A DNA stretch of 39,455 nt from a virus (IMGVR_UViG_2526164602_000034); one strand, 5' to 3'. Positions 29,231 through 35,394 are shown, counted from the stretch's first letter. Made by a program: numbers and translations. Notes: a model not told the origin generated them from the sequence alone.

Positions 29231-29656
29231 TCAGAAAAGTGGCGGTTGCGTTCTTGCCAGATGCAGACGGCGCTGTTCGCGTATGACGGTATAAATCTGG
29301 GTTTCTGACATCCGGTAATGGCGGCGAAGGGATTCAATTTTCTCGCCCCGGTCCCAGCGCGAAAATATCTCATTGTTTCGCAGCTCGGCAAAGAGAGATT
29401 CCCCGACCGGCAGGTAATAACCCCGTCCGCCCATATAGGCTGCCTGAGCCGCAGCCACCTTGCGTGCCAGTTTACCGGCCAGTACCGGCTCAATCCCCTG
29501 ACGCTGAAGTTCTGCGCCGGTGACTTCAACCAGTTCTGACAGGGTCCGCGGCCAGTTCTTTTTGAGAACATCATCAGGGATGTCATCAAGGCGGTCGATA
29601 AGGGCGTGCAGTTGCTCACTGTCACCACCAAACATGCTCATCTGAGTTTCTGCCAT
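29231..29656 (-). CDS. Mor/C-family transcriptional activator (middle/late gene activator)
   Basis: 141-aa protein at the Mu Mor/C position (after gemA, before lys) with C-terminal HTH-like region; only one family member is present here. Confidence 0.7.
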   Translation of the reverse strand: MAETQMSMFGGDSEQLHALIDRLDDIPDDVLKKNWPRTLSELVEVTGAELQRQGIEPVLAGKLARKVAAAQAAYMGGRGYYLPVGESLFAELRNNEIFSRWDRGEKIESLRRHYRMSETQIYTVIREQRRLHLARTQPPLF

Positions 29657-29686
29657 ATCAGCCTCCGGTTCTCGCGTTCCCGGTAA

Positions 29687-29720
29687 GTTTAAAATAAAAA
29701 TCCCGCGTTGTGGCGGGATT
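29687..29720 (-). terminator. Rho-independent terminator at the end of the early operon
   Basis: On the minus strand AATCCCGC-CACAAC-GCGGGATT followed by TTTATTTTAAAC, 5 nt after the gemA stop. Confidence 0.65.
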
Positions 29721-29725
29721 TGGGG

Positions 29726-30235
29726 TTAACGGGGAAGTGATTTTTCATACTGCCTGCAAACGGCGTCATACCCCATCAGCGTGCGTTCGGGCATTCCCAT
29801 CGCGGCCAGCATTTTGCGGCGGTGCCATCGCTTGAGACGCTCCAGCACATCTGAGGCCAGGGCGGGGTGTTGCTCCAGCCACTGCCAGTTTGCCACACCT
29901 TCGCCGCCGTTCTGCGCGGCCGTCTGCGATTTCACCCAGCGGTTAAGGGCGGTTTCCGCACCATCGGTGATAAAGCCCTGCCGGTGCATCACCTTCCAGA
30001 TGGCGCGAATTTTGGCGGTCACCGTACCCGGTTTTAAGGCCCGGTTAACCGGGTTCTGACGCACTTTAAAACCGCGTTTTTTGAAAACATCCAGCACGCG
30101 GGATAACTCATCCGGTGACATATCCCGGCAGCTGGTTTTGCCGGTGGCTGCCAGCAGCGCGGATGTATAAGTCTCATCATCCAGGGCAAGCTCGCGCTTT
30201 GCCACATGAATGGCGGATATCAGTTTTCCTCTCAT
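29726..30235 (-). CDS. gemA: GemA-like protein (Mu gp16 family)
   Basis: 169-aa ORF at the end of the early operon immediately before the terminator and the Mor/C gene, as Mu gemA. Confidence 0.65.
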   Translation of the reverse strand: MRGKLISAIHVAKRELALDDETYTSALLAATGKTSCRDMSPDELSRVLDVFKKRGFKVRQNPVNRALKPGTVTAKIRAIWKVMHRQGFITDGAETALNRWVKSQTAAQNGGEGVANWQWLEQHPALASDVLERLKRWHRRKMLAAMGMPERTLMGYDAVCRQYEKSLPR

Positions 30236-30528
30236 ACCGTATTTACCTTTTTACGGACATGGAAAGCCTTTTCTGCCTCATCCCACCGGGCATGGTGTGT
30301 TGGTGGAATAATCATTATGTGCCAGCCATCTCTGGTTGTTATCCGGCAGAAAAACTCACCGCTATATAACACAATGGCCTGCTGAATGAGCGCATCAGCC
30401 GCCCGTTCAACCGGATGTCTTTTATCAAAAAAGCAGATGATTTTTCGACATAACCACCGGGTAATAACAAATGCGCCGAAAAAGGATGTGATATATAAGC
30501 ACCAGAACAACAGAGAACTATTGTCCAT
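30232..30528 (-). CDS. Hypothetical membrane protein
   Basis: 98-aa ORF with N-terminal hydrophobic segment LLFWCLYITSFFGAFVI; 4-nt overlap with gemA. Confidence 0.45.
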   Translation of the reverse strand: MDNSSLLFWCLYITSFFGAFVITRWLCRKIICFFDKRHPVERAADALIQQAIVLYSGEFFCRITTRDGWHIMIIPPTHHARWDEAEKAFHVRKKVNTV

Positions 30529-30715
30529 TATCTTTCTCCTTATTCACTCTTCTGCGGCATTCGGCACAGTCATCAGGGCTTTCAAATGTATCCGGCTCGC
30601 GATTATGAGCCAGATATAACCACCGTCCACATATACTGATATTTTCGCCTGTTTTAAAAAAATGATGCTTCCTGGCCATTAGTGGCCGCGCCCATCCAGC
30701 GGGTAGACTATTCAT
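30518..30715 (-). CDS. Hypothetical small protein with Cys cluster
   Basis: 65 aa; ICGRW...CAEC possible zinc-binding arrangement; overlaps neighbours. Confidence 0.4.
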   Translation of the reverse strand: MNSLPAGWARPLMARKHHFFKTGENISICGRWLYLAHNREPDTFESPDDCAECRRRVNKEKDNGQ

Positions 30716-31082
30716 TTGCTTTATCCTCCATGCTGGACAGAATCATATGTATTAATGTCGGGCGTGGAGATATACGCATTTCATTAAGCGTCTGAAGGGC
30801 AGCAACAGCTGCCTGTTTATCGGTGCCTTTGGCAATTTCAGCAAGAGAATGCACAATCCATAACGGACTTAACGCCACGGCTGAATCCAGAATCATGTCA
30901 TCCATAATAATTTCTGGCATATCCCGTTTGTCACATTCTTTATCCATAAAAGAAACGATTTTTTCTGCATCTTCCGGTTTCATGCCTCCGGCGATGAGAA
31001 TTTTACGATATTCATAAGACGATCTTAATTCAATACTCATATTCATCTCCTGTAACTCTGACAAGGTCGTGATTTTTCTCAT
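30708..31082 (-). CDS. Hypothetical protein
   Basis: 124-aa ORF in an operon-like array with overlapping stop and start codons. Confidence 0.45.
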   Translation of the reverse strand: MRKITTLSELQEMNMSIELRSSYEYRKILIAGGMKPEDAEKIVSFMDKECDKRDMPEIIMDDMILDSAVALSPLWIVHSLAEIAKGTDKQAAVAALQTLNEMRISPRPTLIHMILSSMEDKANE

Positions 31083-31264
31083 TTATGTTTTCCAGTAATA
31101 CGGATATATATGTCGATAAGAAGATTCATAATAAACAGGAAGAGCGACATCCTGATAAAGAACCATATATCCGGCATCATGGACAGATTTCCTGTAACCG
31201 CAAATATAAAACCAACCCCCCACACAGGAACGATAATTGCGAAAAAAACAAGTCTCCTTATCAT
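31079..31264 (-). CDS. Hypothetical small membrane protein (two hydrophobic segments)
   Basis: 61 aa; LVFFAIIVPVWGVGFIFAV and LFLFIMNLLIDIYI. Confidence 0.4.
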   Translation of the reverse strand: MIRRLVFFAIIVPVWGVGFIFAVTGNLSMMPDIWFFIRMSLFLFIMNLLIDIYIRITGKHK

Positions 31265-31812
31265 GTCGTTAACTCCCGTAATACAACATCTTCGGCAGTC
31301 CGACGACGGTGATAAATAAAACTCACCGTGCCCTCGGATAATTCAAATTTCTCGCCGATTTCCCTAAAGGTAAGACGCCGTGGTGATTCAGCATCCCGTA
31401 ATTCACGAATAAGATGAACATCATCGTCAGGTATGCGGGTAAAAGGCAGTAATTCTCCGTATTTTTTCATGCTTACGCCAATATATCGCGCCCGATTGTG
31501 GACAGAATCCCGGTCTCGCCCCAGATATTCTCCTATTTGCTTACCGGTCATCGTCCTGGCATTTTTTCGGATAAATTTATCTTCATCAGGTTTAAATCTG
31601 AGGCGTTTGCATTTGAGCAACTCCGGGTAAGTACCGCGTAATAAAACAATCCGGTTATGTACACCCCAGAAACTTCTTTTTATCCTGACAGCAATATCCT
31701 TAACCGGGGTGGATGGATAAAGCGCAATCAGCAGCGCATCTTCTTCAGGTGTCCATGCGCGAACATGAGCGGGTGCACGGCCTTTTCTCCCCATGGGTTG
31801 TAATTTCATCAT
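31261..31812 (-). CDS. Hypothetical protein with repeated helix-turn-helix-like modules
   Basis: 183 aa; WTPEEDALLIALY, TMTGKQIGEYLGRDRDSVHNRARYIG and LTFREIGEKFELSEGTVSFI resemble sigma region 4 / LuxR-type HTH units. Confidence 0.5.
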   Translation of the reverse strand: MMKLQPMGRKGRAPAHVRAWTPEEDALLIALYPSTPVKDIAVRIKRSFWGVHNRIVLLRGTYPELLKCKRLRFKPDEDKFIRKNARTMTGKQIGEYLGRDRDSVHNRARYIGVSMKKYGELLPFTRIPDDDVHLIRELRDAESPRRLTFREIGEKFELSEGTVSFIYHRRRTAEDVVLRELTT

Positions 31813-31815
31813 GCA

Positions 31816-32331
31816 TCACCCCCCGACTCGCTTTTCGGCAGCATAAAACTCATCAGACAGAATTTCGGTCATTTTCCGTTTTGCGGAATCATCTTCGCAC
31901 TGAAGGTAAATAACATCGTCAACGCAGAACCACTTCACGGGACCATGCAATATTGCTGAGAAGTCAATACCCAGCCAGAACAACAGTGCATCGGTTCTGG
32001 CATACGTGACGGGCGAATATTCACGCCACAGACTGTTAAGTTCGTCAGAGGCAACGCGCAGGGCTTTGGGAATACGTGATGTGCGCGGTGTGCAGCTCCA
32101 GCCATTCGACGCAGTCGGTTTTCGCCATAAGTCGCGATGAAAAGGATATTTGTCATCCATAAAGCGCAGCCCTTTAAAACAAAAGCCACTGATACCGGAT
32201 ACAAATACCGACCGGCACGCAACATTCAGCACGGCCTCAAGGCGTTTTGCCTCATCCTTAACTTTCTGGCAGTCCTGCTGATATTTTTGCCACGCGGCCA
32301 GCGCGGAAGGGTTTGATGTTTTAAAGAACAT
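31816..32331 (-). CDS. Hypothetical protein
   Basis: 171-aa ORF, same strand and tight spacing with neighbours. Confidence 0.45.
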   Translation of the reverse strand: MFFKTSNPSALAAWQKYQQDCQKVKDEAKRLEAVLNVACRSVFVSGISGFCFKGLRFMDDKYPFHRDLWRKPTASNGWSCTPRTSRIPKALRVASDELNSLWREYSPVTYARTDALLFWLGIDFSAILHGPVKWFCVDDVIYLQCEDDSAKRKMTEILSDEFYAAEKRVGG

Positions 32332-32864
32332 TACGCCACCTCCGCAGATATCCCGGCAGGTGCAGCCGTCCGGTCAACAATCAGGTAACGCAGAACATGT
32401 TCGGTGATATTCCAGCCGCTTAAACCGCAGATAATGACACCCAGGCGAATGTCGATATACGCCATCACAAACTGGGGCACGCCTTCTTTCATGGCCTGCT
32501 CATCAACTTCAACCACCACATAAACGGTTTCGCAGGTCAGTACGCCCTGAGCAAATTCCCACGCCATCGACGGAATATCATGCCCCTCAATCCACGGCAG
32601 GGATTTTCTGAAGCTGCACCACTGAACATCATCAGCCGCACCTTCCTGGCTGCATTTGCGACGAACCGGCTGCACCGGGCGGGGACGCGGAATATCATAA
32701 AAACCGTTACATTCCGTCAGCACCCCGGCATCGACCGCATCACGCAAAAAATAAACCATCGAGGATGGCGGCATATTCATTTTTTCAGCCAGAATGCCGC
32801 AGGTCAGACGCCCGTAAATACTCAGCCAGTTTTTAACCCCTTCAAGCACTTTTGCATCAATCAT
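32331..32864 (-). CDS. Hypothetical protein, possible N-terminal winged-helix domain
   Basis: 177 aa; start overlaps the stop of the upstream gene. Confidence 0.45.
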   Translation of the reverse strand: MIDAKVLEGVKNWLSIYGRLTCGILAEKMNMPPSSMVYFLRDAVDAGVLTECNGFYDIPRPRPVQPVRRKCSQEGAADDVQWCSFRKSLPWIEGHDIPSMAWEFAQGVLTCETVYVVVEVDEQAMKEGVPQFVMAYIDIRLGVIICGLSGWNITEHVLRYLIVDRTAAPAGISAEVA

Positions 32865-32867
32865 GAA

Positions 32868-33410
32868 TTATTCCTCCGTCAGCGCCACATATTCAGAATG
32901 TTTAATTTCCTGGCATTCTTCAGGAATACACCCTTTTATTTCCCTGCCATAAGCGCCTACTTTAAACACCACGCACAGGGCATCACGGGAGAGCGACGGG
33001 GTCCACCAGGAGTCCGTGTTAAACATGGAGGGGATTCTCATTACCCCCAGCTTTTCACAGAGCCAGACAAGGAAATCAGGACGCTTTCTTAACTCACGTT
33101 CAGCGGTTTCAATCATTGCGGCAATCGCCGGACCTTCAGGGCATGACTCATCAGGTCTGGCAATAAAGCACGGTCCGTCCCCGATAAAAGCCACATCATC
33201 GCGCTTACGCCAGCCCGCAGGCAGAGCACCAGAAAAATAAAACTCACTGATTACGTCCATGGCAAACGGCTTTAAGCGCAATCCGGCAGCGCCTGTATTT
33301 TTCAGTAATGCCCGAAGAATACTGTTGCGTAGCGGTAAAACAGTCTGTTGATATTTGGTGAAATATTTATTTGTCTGCACACGGTCTAATTTGAAATAAA
33401 AATATGCCAT
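32868..33410 (-). CDS. Hypothetical protein
   Basis: 180-aa ORF preceded by a 97-bp AT-rich gap after gam. Confidence 0.45.
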   Translation of the reverse strand: MAYFYFKLDRVQTNKYFTKYQQTVLPLRNSILRALLKNTGAAGLRLKPFAMDVISEFYFSGALPAGWRKRDDVAFIGDGPCFIARPDESCPEGPAIAAMIETAERELRKRPDFLVWLCEKLGVMRIPSMFNTDSWWTPSLSRDALCVVFKVGAYGREIKGCIPEECQEIKHSEYVALTEE

Positions 33411-33507
33411 ATATCCTGTTCCTTATTTTCAGTTTACAGGCGCAGGCAGTCCCCTGACGCGAGCGCCATAATTAAAACGAAGTGATATTTAATTGATTAA
33501 TGCGGTG

Positions 33508-34038
33508 TTATTTATTCAGTCCGGCGTCCTGTTCAAAAGGCTCGACATAAAAACTTTCAGCGCCTTTATTCACCTTAATACCGGCAATCCCTTTCACCGC
33601 ATCCGGCTCCGCCAGGACCGCTTCCTTGTTCACTTCCTCTTTCGTGCGGATAAAACGCTCAAGGCCCATACGGCGCAGCATTTCAATCACACCTTCCACA
33701 TCACGACTGACGCTGCATGATGGATTCCCCAGTCGCCATGACACCGTTCCGGTGGTCAGATTGGCAGTTTTGGTTTTGCCGCCGTTCGTCAGCTCATCAC
33801 GGTTGGTTTTGCACCAGTCCTGAATCCCCTTAAAAAGCACTTTGATTTCTTTTTTAAGGTTTTCAATCTGCGGCGTATAACGGGCGGTGATTTCTGCCAC
33901 TTCATCATTCATCGCTGTTTCCAGGCGCAGCGCCTCTCGCTGAATATCGCCCAGGGTGCGGATATCGCGGCTGACCTCTTCACGGGTCTGCGGTGCCGCC
34001 TCTGCTGCGGCCTTTAATTTTGTAACGCGTTTTGCCAT
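33508..34038 (-). CDS. gam: Gam-like host-nuclease inhibitor (DNA-end-binding)
   Basis: 176-aa ORF in the early region in the Mu gam position and of the Mu Gam size. Confidence 0.75.
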   Translation of the reverse strand: MAKRVTKLKAAAEAAPQTREEVSRDIRTLGDIQREALRLETAMNDEVAEITARYTPQIENLKKEIKVLFKGIQDWCKTNRDELTNGGKTKTANLTTGTVSWRLGNPSCSVSRDVEGVIEMLRRMGLERFIRTKEEVNKEAVLAEPDAVKGIAGIKVNKGAESFYVEPFEQDAGLNK

Positions 34039-34049
34039 TTTGTTTTTCC

Positions 34050-34343
34050 TTATTGCAGTGTGCCTGATGCTTTATGCACGCGGTGGCGTTTAATGATGGC
34101 ATCCGCCCCAAAAGCCTGTACAGATGCCTGAAATTCCGCTGAGAGAAACTGAATAATTTCAGGGCTGTGATACTGGAGAATACTTGCATAAACGTCACAG
34201 AGTGACGTCGGCCTGTTATTCGTATCACGTTCTGTTTTTACATCCACACCAATCTTTTCATGCACTTCAACACAGTCATTGCCTGCCGGTTTTTCGTCAT
34301 GCGAAACATGCTTAAATTCAAAAATAACGCGTACTTTGCTCAT
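34050..34343 (-). CDS. Hypothetical small protein, tandem paralogue 2
   Basis: ATG at 34343 (MSKVRVIFEFKHV...); N-terminus matches the upstream neighbour MSKVVRIIFEYKEHV. Confidence 0.5.
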   Translation of the reverse strand: MSKVRVIFEFKHVSHDEKPAGNDCVEVHEKIGVDVKTERDTNNRPTSLCDVYASILQYHSPEIIQFLSAEFQASVQAFGADAIIKRHRVHKASGTLQ

Positions 34344-34347
34344 GGAA

Positions 34348-34620
34348 TTACCCCTGCTGATTAAATTCATTACCTTTAATAACCCCGGAACGCATGCTCA
34401 TATCTTTCATGAGCGCACTGGCTTTCATTGCCACAAGTTCAGCAAAGTCTCTGCTTTCCGCGAGCATAACCACCCCAAAAATCATGGCGGGTCCATCACC
34501 TTTCTGCTTTATCCCGGTTGAACGTATGTCCAGACTTACCCCCATGCGCACTGTTCCATCAGCGTTTTTATGGATAACGTGCTCCTTGTATTCGAAAATA
34601 ATGCGTACGACTTTACTCAC
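34348..34620 (-). CDS. Hypothetical small protein, tandem paralogue 1
   Basis: 90-aa ORF; shares the N-terminal MSKV-RIIFE-K-HV pattern with the next gene. Confidence 0.5.
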   Translation of the reverse strand: MSKVVRIIFEYKEHVIHKNADGTVRMGVSLDIRSTGIKQKGDGPAMIFGVVMLAESRDFAELVAMKASALMKDMSMRSGVIKGNEFNQQG

Positions 34621-34898
34621 CCTCTGGTCCTCGTTCTGTTTGGATAACTGACCCGGCGTCTGACCTCACGGCAGAACCGAATCATGGCATTAAAGGCTTC
34701 TTCCTCCGTCACCGCTTCCGGTATCCCCGGAACCAGTAACTGCTCCTGTTCATCACGTCCATGACGCGCCATAACCTCAATCACATGCCGTACCGTGGCA
34801 GGCTTTCCGGCAACTATCGGCAATGCACCTTCCGGCAGGACGTAACCAAACTCAATAAGACCACTCGACCACGCCCATGCAATGAGATTTTTTTTCAC
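34617..34898 (-). CDS. Hypothetical protein
   Basis: 93-aa ORF, 4-nt overlaps on both sides. Confidence 0.45.
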   Translation of the reverse strand: MKKNLIAWAWSSGLIEFGYVLPEGALPIVAGKPATVRHVIEVMARHGRDEQEQLLVPGIPEAVTEEEAFNAMIRFCREVRRRVSYPNRTRTRG

Positions 34899-34899
34899 C

Positions 34900-35166
34900 T
34901 CACACCTCCCAGTAAACCGTGCAGCCGCTGATGCGGGTGGCCTTCACACGGCGGCGCAGGCCGTTGGTCTGTATGGTGATTTCAATTTCACCGGTTCCCT
35001 GCACGTTGCCTACCGGCGGCGTGGTTTTCAGTGCAAAACGTTGTGGGTAGCGCTTACTGCGTTCCAGTACCGCACCGGCAAGTTCGGTCAGACGGCGCGC
35101 GCTGTTCAGGGAGTCGAATAAATTCATTTTGTTACCGCAGGATTGCATATTCATATAACACCTCAT
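34900..35166 (-). CDS. Hypothetical protein
   Basis: 88-aa ORF in the early operon. Confidence 0.4.
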   Translation of the reverse strand: MRCYMNMQSCGNKMNLFDSLNSARRLTELAGAVLERSKRYPQRFALKTTPPVGNVQGTGEIEITIQTNGLRRRVKATRISGCTVYWEV

Positions 35167-35394
35167 TTAGCTGACTTGTTTCGCACCAACAGAACGGCAT
35201 ATTCCGCTGTAAACGTCTGTCGCACCTTCGCGATCAAGTCCGGCAGATATCACCATTCGTGTGCGGTCATTAAATTCAAAAAGTAAATCGCCACATTCTT
35301 TATTTTCGGCCAGTGAAATCACCTTCACGTTATCGAAATTAACCAGGTAAAAGCGTCCGTAAATATCAGGAATATAAAATACCGCCATAATCAC
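35167..35394 (-). CDS. Hypothetical small protein at the Mu kil position
   Basis: 75-aa ORF starting 4 nt inside the end of the B gene, the position and size of Mu kil. Confidence 0.4.
   Translation of the reverse strand: MIMAVFYIPDIYGRFYLVNFDNVKVISLAENKECGDLLFEFNDRTRMVISAGLDREGATDVYSGICRSVGAKQVS

Follow-up and report, generated by a model that had tools for sequence, protein, structure and literature searches.

What does a Mu-like phage keep between gam, which encodes a host-nuclease inhibitor, and gemA? The question is raised by the window considered here, which is the whole 39,455-nucleotide stretch of viral DNA catalogued as IMGVR_UViG_2526164602_000034, where eight small genes (called o1 to o8) occupy this interval. 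The window holds a minus-strand Mu-like prophage in which the repressor (38850, plus strand) is followed by ner, A, B, five small open reading frames (ORFs), gam, o1-o8, gemA, a Mor/C-family gene, and lysis genes including that for lysozyme. Between positions 29275 and 34375 it differs from prophage Sp18 of Escherichia coli O157:H7 Sakai by 1 mismatch in 5,101 nt. The interval probably belongs to the semi-essential early (SEE) region of Sp18, an accessory region of the Mu type, and makes up its distal half; it is composed of a conserved module (o2-o4) and two variable slots, one for o1 and one for o5-o8. The SEE region is an already known kind of region; according to an earlier description (PMC8705779), it is long and poorly conserved, and the small proteins that it encodes are uncharacterised. 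What is new here is the separation of a conserved trio from two high-turnover slots, a corrected gene model for o6, and the definition of a large unannotated family of putative zinc-type mini-proteins that includes o7.

The eight ORFs are co-oriented and tightly packed, as stated in a preliminary description of the window, and both anchors are confirmed by Pfam: gam (33508..34038, minus strand; ECs_4952) matches Phage_Mu_Gam (E=1.5e-41) and has 57% identity to Mu Gam, and gemA (29726..30235, minus strand) matches GemA (E=3e-30) and has 44% identity to Mu GemA. The interval has the position of a Mu-type SEE region, within the early operon, downstream of A and B and upstream of gemA and the Mor/C-like gene, which bears out the assignment made in the preliminary description; its conservation is also poor, with only o2 and o3 common to Mu. 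In Sp18 the genes o1-o8 carry the locus tags ECs_4953, 4954, 4955, 4956, 5772, 4957, 4958, and 4959, respectively, all annotated as hypothetical. None of the eight has an assigned function, and to that extent they were rightly called uncharacterised; however, not all are orphans, as o2 and o3 are Mu gp11 and gp12, o4 belongs to the gp9/E8 family, and o1 and o6 resemble SfMu ORF11 and ORF14. As in Mu, the genes lie between B and gemA/mor as packed small ORFs on the same strand, with gam, gp11, gp12, and gemA in the same order. Of the five genes that Mu has in this interval (gp11-14 and Mu_54), only gp11 and gp12 are shared, whereas Sp18 has the additional o1 and o4 and a different distal cassette, o5-o8. 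The impression that there are more genes than in Mu is correct (eight versus five), but eight is not a special number, as close relatives hold approximately 5 to 11, and the excess partly reflects the cassettes present in this copy.

The distinction between module and slots comes from comparing the interval, anchored on GemA and Gam, in 35 Sp18-lineage loci together with Mu, SfMu, and two Yersinia Mu-like phages. In the lineage o2, o3, and o4 are always present (35/35 loci), while natural relatives lack o1, o5, o6, o7, or o8. The segment from o4 to gemA is a mosaic of about 11 families (o5-o8, A-F, and H) in at least seven arrangements, that of the window among them as well as one with the gp13/gp14 pair of the Mu type; between B and gam, these loci have only about five families. 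The cassettes follow one another in a fixed order, o5, H, A, B, o6, o7, o8, with 11 genes in the longest form. The comparison that the preliminary description proposed for the gam-gemA interval therefore finds o1 and o5-o8 variable and o2-o4 fixed; only o2 and o3 have Mu orthologues, and none of the eight has a replication or transposition role, so that the conserved set of eight with assigned roles that would have spoken against the preliminary reading is not what is seen. Strong variation of part of the interval is the pattern expected of host-interaction or counter-defence cargo. Small low-GC (guanine plus cytosine) genes are gained, lost, and swapped in the variable slots, and o1 and o5-o8 would act as dispensable host-directed effectors in host takeover, exclusion, or counter-defence.

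The first slot follows a 97-nt spacer after gam (33411..33507, minus strand), the sole sizeable non-coding gap of the array; its counterpart after gam in Mu is 98 nt, and it contains no match to a promoter or terminator consensus. The 180-aa o1 (32868..33410, minus strand; ECs_4953) matches phrog_2260 (E=7e-75), has a ratio of nonsynonymous to synonymous polymorphism (pN/pS) of 0.28, and shows 40% identity to SfMu ORF11 and 38% to a Salmonella protein named "DUF5420 family." Three states of the slot are found: the 180-aa type, a 196-aa DUF5420 type, and absence, which places o2 directly after gam, the arrangement found in Mu. Neither o1 nor SfMu ORF11 has any Pfam match at E<=0.1, DUF5420 (PF17457) included, and of the proteins of this slot only the 192-aa allele of strain 2012EL-2448 matches that family (51.4 bits). 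Proteins to which NCBI gives the name DUF5420 have 38-40% identity to o1 and the same invariant motifs, but as o1 lacks a Pfam match, it is treated as a distant relative at the edge of the family and not as a demonstrated member. The C-terminal tail of o1, IKHSE(Y/F)-A-TEE, is invariant among relatives that are 22-95% identical, which suggests a binding motif. SfMu has ORF11 at the same gam-proximal position as o1 and ORF14 in the distal segment like o6, and both have been reported to be without homologues in Mu and D108 (PMC4406740); however, the SfMu proteins are divergent and are combined with the Mu-type gp13/gp14 cassette, not with o5, o7, and o8. The sole literature mention of any of the eight is a 2.8-fold increase of ECs_4953 (o1) in one stress transcriptome paper; literature searches with the RefSeq accessions or with DUF5420 returned nothing.

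The second slot encodes four small proteins, two of which are predicted to be membrane proteins. The 61-aa o5 (31079..31264, minus strand; ECs_5772) has hydrophobic segments at residues 1-28 and 32-58 and a pN/pS of 0.23; it is found only in the Sp18 prophage lineage, where it is present in some relatives, absent from others, and frameshifted in one. The 98-aa o8 (30232..30528, minus strand; ECs_4959; phrog_17269) has a single hydrophobic segment at residues 4-24, a predicted N-terminal membrane anchor, and is also restricted to the Sp18 lineage. Two allelic forms of o8, with proteins approximately 51% identical, occur within prophages that are otherwise about 90-97% identical (L008, L017, L024, L027, L047), and its pN/pS of 0.39 is the highest of the eight. 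The two small membrane proteins of the preliminary description are thus recovered by hydropathy.

The 110-aa o6 (30708..31040, minus strand; ECs_4957) is acidic (isoelectric point 4.9), is 33% identical to SfMu and YpM proteins, including SfMu ORF14, and has a pN/pS of 0.21. The ORF can be extended to 124 aa (30708-31082), but the match to phrog_1988 (E=1e-44) covers residues 15-123 of the longer form, a good Shine-Dalgarno (SD) motif precedes Met15, and both PGAP and the homologues start at Met15; the protein is therefore taken to have 110 aa, not 124. The origin of the extension is apparent from alignment with the 11-gene variant L004. The window keeps the first 11 nt of gene H, and a short junction links them to the DNA that immediately precedes o6, so that a deletion or recombination scar (31041..31082, minus strand) consists of the retained gene H start (ATGAGAAAAAT) and junction filler. 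The 14-codon extension that overlaps o5 is accordingly spurious, a scar left by the deleted gene H, and the eight-gene array of the window is a shortened derivative of the 11-gene form.

The Cys-cluster protein of the preliminary description is o7 (30518..30715, minus strand; 65 aa; ECs_4958), in which a conserved His/Cys3 pattern, GW...H...C...CxxC, suggests zinc binding. At 50% identity the o7 family divides into 435 clusters, and most of its members stand alone and have 60-85 aa; residues G7, W8, H18, C29, C50, and C53 are invariant, and pN/pS is 0.13. Homologues are present in Klebsiella and Pantoea phages, Sf11-like siphoviruses, 47-kb phage-plasmids, and an unrelated Mu-like phage, where the gene lies near gemA; one o7-type gene is directly upstream of a DNA methyltransferase gene. 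A Kunitz/BPTI domain was considered because of a weak one-directional profile match (E=0.005; profile positions 12-52 against BPTI 13-52), but this reading is rejected, as three cysteines and one histidine are invariant rather than the six-cysteine, three-disulfide pattern and no reciprocal match to Pfam Kunitz is found. The likeness to BPTI probably reflects similar spacing in a small hairpin-plus-helix module and not homology. Rosetta-stone fusions were not informative either; the only recognisable partner is DUF551, and two long multi-repeat matches are spurious Cys-rich proteins.

A rival account, that of the preliminary description, is that the slots counter host immunity. In an anti-defence island, at least one gene of the variable slots (o1, o5-o8) would inhibit an immune system, such as restriction-modification, CRISPR, CBASS, Thoeris, retrons, or Gabija, and the turnover would reflect an arms race; as an account of the interval this is possible but doubtful. 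Its attraction is that the genes are predicted to be early, are small and low in GC, and are rapidly exchanged between prophages that are about 96% identical, as illustrated by the two alleles of o8. In addition, o6 is acidic, as the sequence of the alternative cassette gene H suggests for its product too, genes of the o7 type move among unrelated phages and phage-plasmids and in one case adjoin a DNA methyltransferase gene, and the same phage already has the classical counter-defence genes gam and mom. Phage anti-defence or accessory hotspots include the anti-CRISPR loci of Pseudomonas Mu-like phages and the early accessory regions of T7-like phages. The interval resembles such hotspots in having a fixed slot between conserved anchors and small, horizontally exchanged genes with fast turnover, but it is unlike them in that no known Acr, Aca, Ard, or Ocr member was found in the slot in approximately 70 loci examined.

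Searches for families do not add to this explanation. A scan of the eight proteins with Pfam, PHROGs, NCBIfam, and PADLOC, which included no dedicated library of anti-defence hidden Markov models (HMMs), gave no match to families with a role in anti-defence, defence, replication, or transposition, and PADLOC and NCBIfam give nothing past weak helix-turn-helix (HTH) noise for o4. None of the eight has a sequence relative in the PDB, and the one confident structural model, that of o3, has no structural relative there. Of the searches against anti-CRISPR, anti-restriction, and other anti-defence families that the preliminary description proposed, those by sequence profile and PDB sequence gave no such link for any of the eight, and that by structure gave none for o3. 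The alternative cassette genes A-H likewise belong to no known anti-defence family and have no assignable function. The 4 kb that precede gemA in 31 distant Mu-like prophages contain 220 ORFs in 107 clusters, among which only o2 recurs, once, and approximately 80% of the 107 representative proteins have no Pfam match. The Pfam families that are found in this distant zone are MuB-type ATPases, Gam, DUF3164, DUF5420, Gp11_C, HU, DUF2786/7168, DUF2528, HNH, TrmB-type HTH, and zinc ribbon, none of which is known for counter-defence. Moreover, variability is equally expected of exclusion or host-takeover genes. The anti-defence idea is plausible from position, size, and turnover only, and host takeover or exclusion fits equally well.

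That second explanation, also tentative, is that the small membrane proteins o5 and o8 serve in host takeover, killing, or superinfection exclusion, perhaps together with o6 and o7, and do so by disturbing the envelope, cell division, or the entry of DNA, in the manner of Mu Kil or of the exclusion proteins of other phages. The predicted membrane location of o5 and o8 and the position of the genes at the distal end of the early operon are consistent with it. In Mu, the SEE region belongs to the long early transcript, and its deletion restored host viability after infection, from approximately 20% to 100%, from which it was concluded that the semi-essential genes are toxic to the host (PMC3325207). 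The toxicity in Mu may, however, come from kil alone, and the proteins of the slot resemble neither Kil nor any known exclusion protein. A lysogen could also exclude other phages only if the genes were expressed from a repressed prophage, and promoter-like sites are not enriched in the interval. Outside the slots, an 88-aa ORF between B and gam weakly resembles Mu Kil (33% over 39 aa, E=0.002).

For anti-defence, exclusion, and toxicity alike, the candidates to consider first are the cassette genes, and if no cassette affects host defences, then the region is ordinary phage accessory cargo. A more ambitious proposal, offered with considerable reserve, is that the o4-to-gemA segment and the o1 slot form a counter-defence or host-takeover cassette site of enterobacterial Mu-like phages, in which at least one of o1 and o5-o8 would be a new type of inhibitor and o7 a mobile effector across phage types; separately, gp12 (o3) would represent a new fold that extends from Mu to unrelated phages.

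The conserved module has recognisable relatives in Mu. The 177-aa o2 (32331..32864, minus strand; ECs_4954) consists of a tentative N-terminal winged-helix-like domain and Gp11_C (PF25754; 136.6 bits, cut-off 27); it is 67% identical to Mu_11 (gp11) and lies directly upstream of the gp12 orthologue, and so belongs to the gp11 family. The 171-aa o3 (31816..32331, minus strand; ECs_4955) has an alpha/beta fold in its model and is syntenic with Mu gp12, to which it is 53% identical over 168 aa; precomputed matches to PF26885 on 46 of 46 o3 homologue clusters agree with its membership of the gp12 family. Both the order of o2 and o3 and their 1-nt overlap are those of Mu gp11-gp12, although family membership adds only a name for each and no function. 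Proteins of the gp12 type also stand alone in non-Mu phages, where the neighbouring genes give no functional clue from location, and gp12 is absent from Yersinia phage vB_YpM_3. The BFVD matches to the o3 model include unnamed proteins that are o1-like in size. Distant paralogy of o1 and o3 was considered and not adopted, as the hhalign probability was 0.2%, and 0.5% with a broader gp12 profile. The two proteins are similar in length, in an (F/Y)FK strand near the N-terminus, and in an EI..SE(F/Y).A motif near the C-terminus, and the second alignment was collinear but not significant.

The third member, o4 (31261..31812, minus strand; 183 aa; ECs_4956), is basic (isoelectric point 10.1) and is the protein for which the preliminary description noted three HTH-like modules; weak Pfam HTH/Myb matches at three positions agree with that count. 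Both o4 (E=1e-58) and Mu gp9 (E=1e-28) match phrog_323, which places o4 in the gp9 (E8) family, and residues 66-166 of o4 (101 aa) are 32% identical to gp9. In Sp18 the gene has three repeats and is downstream of gam, whereas Mu gp9 has two and is upstream of gam. A homologue with 36% identity is found in the early operon of a P2-like phage. By sequence, o2-o4 form a conserved module with predicted nucleic-acid-binding features and not variable cargo; the three proteins would act on DNA or transcription beside Gam during transposition-replication, and they are candidates for a core early function common to Mu.

A role of this kind could be extended to the whole array, so that all eight genes would be auxiliary to replication, transposition, or regulation in a Mu-type replication and transcription cascade, for example with o4 acting for the missing separate Mor. 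This seems rather unlikely. The predicted DNA-binding modules of o2 and o4 and the conservation and coupling of gp11 and gp12 in Mu and Sp18 alike would fit, as would the single Mor/C-family gene in the window, located behind a terminator. However, otherwise intact relatives lack o1 and o5-o8, the Yersinia phage noted above is missing gp12, and no match to Mor, or to any family that serves transposition or replication, was found for the eight. The gp9 family is also not a substitute for Mor, because Mu has both gp9 and Mor.

For the reading as a conserved module between variable slots, it matters that the eight ORFs are genes and that they are expressed early. An SD motif is found ahead of each of the eight ORFs and pN/pS among natural alleles is 0.13-0.39 for all, indicative of purifying selection; together these support eight real genes, and each of them has a PHROG family. 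The GC content of o4-o8 is 0.37-0.46, compared with 0.55-0.59 in the late region. Stops and starts overlap or nearly abut along the array, with spacings from o1 to gemA of +3, -1, +3, -4, -4, -8, -11, and -4 nt if o6 is taken as the 124-aa ORF; the last value is the overlap of the gemA start with the o8 stop. The preliminary description regarded all eight as translationally coupled, and most may well be, since most overlap or abut, but the coupling of o6 to o5 is only apparent and results from the deletion scar. Neither promoter-like sites (7 versus 8.7 expected) nor terminator-like sites (8 versus 7.4 expected) are enriched, and an Rfam scan of the window found no RNA family within the interval. 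The terminator-like site that fits the gene map is the one directly past the gemA stop, a hairpin followed by a T-run (29698..29721, minus strand; AAATCCCGCCACAACGCGGGATTT then TTATTTT). The early promoter would drive o1-o8 in one transcript with ner, A, B, and gam, and the transcript probably ends at this hairpin, so that the products of all eight would appear within minutes of the start of lytic growth.

That the ORFs are instead decaying or non-functional under weak selection is very improbable: the deletion scar, the frameshifted or truncated copies in some relatives (L018, L024, L045), and one IS1 insertion indicate ongoing erosion, but the SD motifs, the pN/pS values, the PHROG families of all eight, and the putative metal-ligand residues that are invariant across the 435 clusters of the o7 family do not fit with such decay. 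The IS1 copy is in locus L007 (E. coli 2012EL-2448), in the variable segment just upstream of gemA.

Several points weigh against the interpretation of the interval as a conserved module with dispensable host-directed cassettes. The IMG/VR and genome loci that were compared may include redundant or defective prophages, and the natural variants suggest dispensability for o1 and o5-o8 but not for o2-o4. As for the terminator and the co-transcription, both are predictions at the level of consensus sequences. The winged-helix assignment in o2 is tentative because the model is of low confidence (predicted local distance difference test, pLDDT, 57), with a C-terminal domain too poor to interpret. 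Finally, the roles proposed for the conserved module and for the cassettes are both ones that we infer. Most semi-essential ORFs of Mu have been without an assigned function for decades, and for the Sp18 lineage the problem is narrowed here, not solved.

Outside the interval, the prophage differs from Mu just downstream of gemA. In Sp18, gemA is followed by the predicted terminator and a single gene of the Mor/C type, whereas Mu has an overlapping mor and then a separate middle operon encoding C. The gene in the window (29231-29725, minus strand) has 39% identity to Mu C and 26-27% to Mor, and lies after the gemA terminator and directly upstream of the lysis genes. There is no counterpart to the overlapping mor and the middle-operon genes gp18-20 of Mu, and the transcription cascade may therefore differ from that of Mu. 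Upstream of gam, the five ORFs between B and gam (34050-35394, minus strand) include, by single-linkage clustering, one group formed by the 75-aa and 93-aa ORFs and another formed by the 90-aa and 106-aa ORFs. At the opposite end of the prophage, a Mom-family DNA-modification gene (1085-1822, minus strand) and a Gin-type serine invertase gene (5343-5903, minus strand) lie by the tail-fibre genes as in Mu; the PGAP records at that end are "protein mom" and "recombinase family protein."

Sequence related to this prophage is present in 233 of 5,426 complete E. coli genomes (about 4%) and is frequent among Shiga-toxin-producing strains; copies of this Mu-like phage are also found inside Stx1- and Stx2-converting prophages (L002, H2). 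Sp18 has been reported to be apparently intact and Mu-like (PMC2669165), and its relatives occupy strain-specific sites and are reported to be capable of transposition, with Sp18 of Sakai located in the sorbose operon (PMC7430833). In the window, the left flank (1-978, plus strand) codes for part of UreC, the alpha subunit of urease, namely its N-terminal 325 aa (Pfam Urease_alpha and Amidohydro_1), and an Rfam 5_ureB_sRNA match is found at 151-429. Homology to Sp18 begins at approximately 953, which places the prophage end near 951-953; this copy therefore seems to be inserted in ureC, unlike Sp18 of Sakai.

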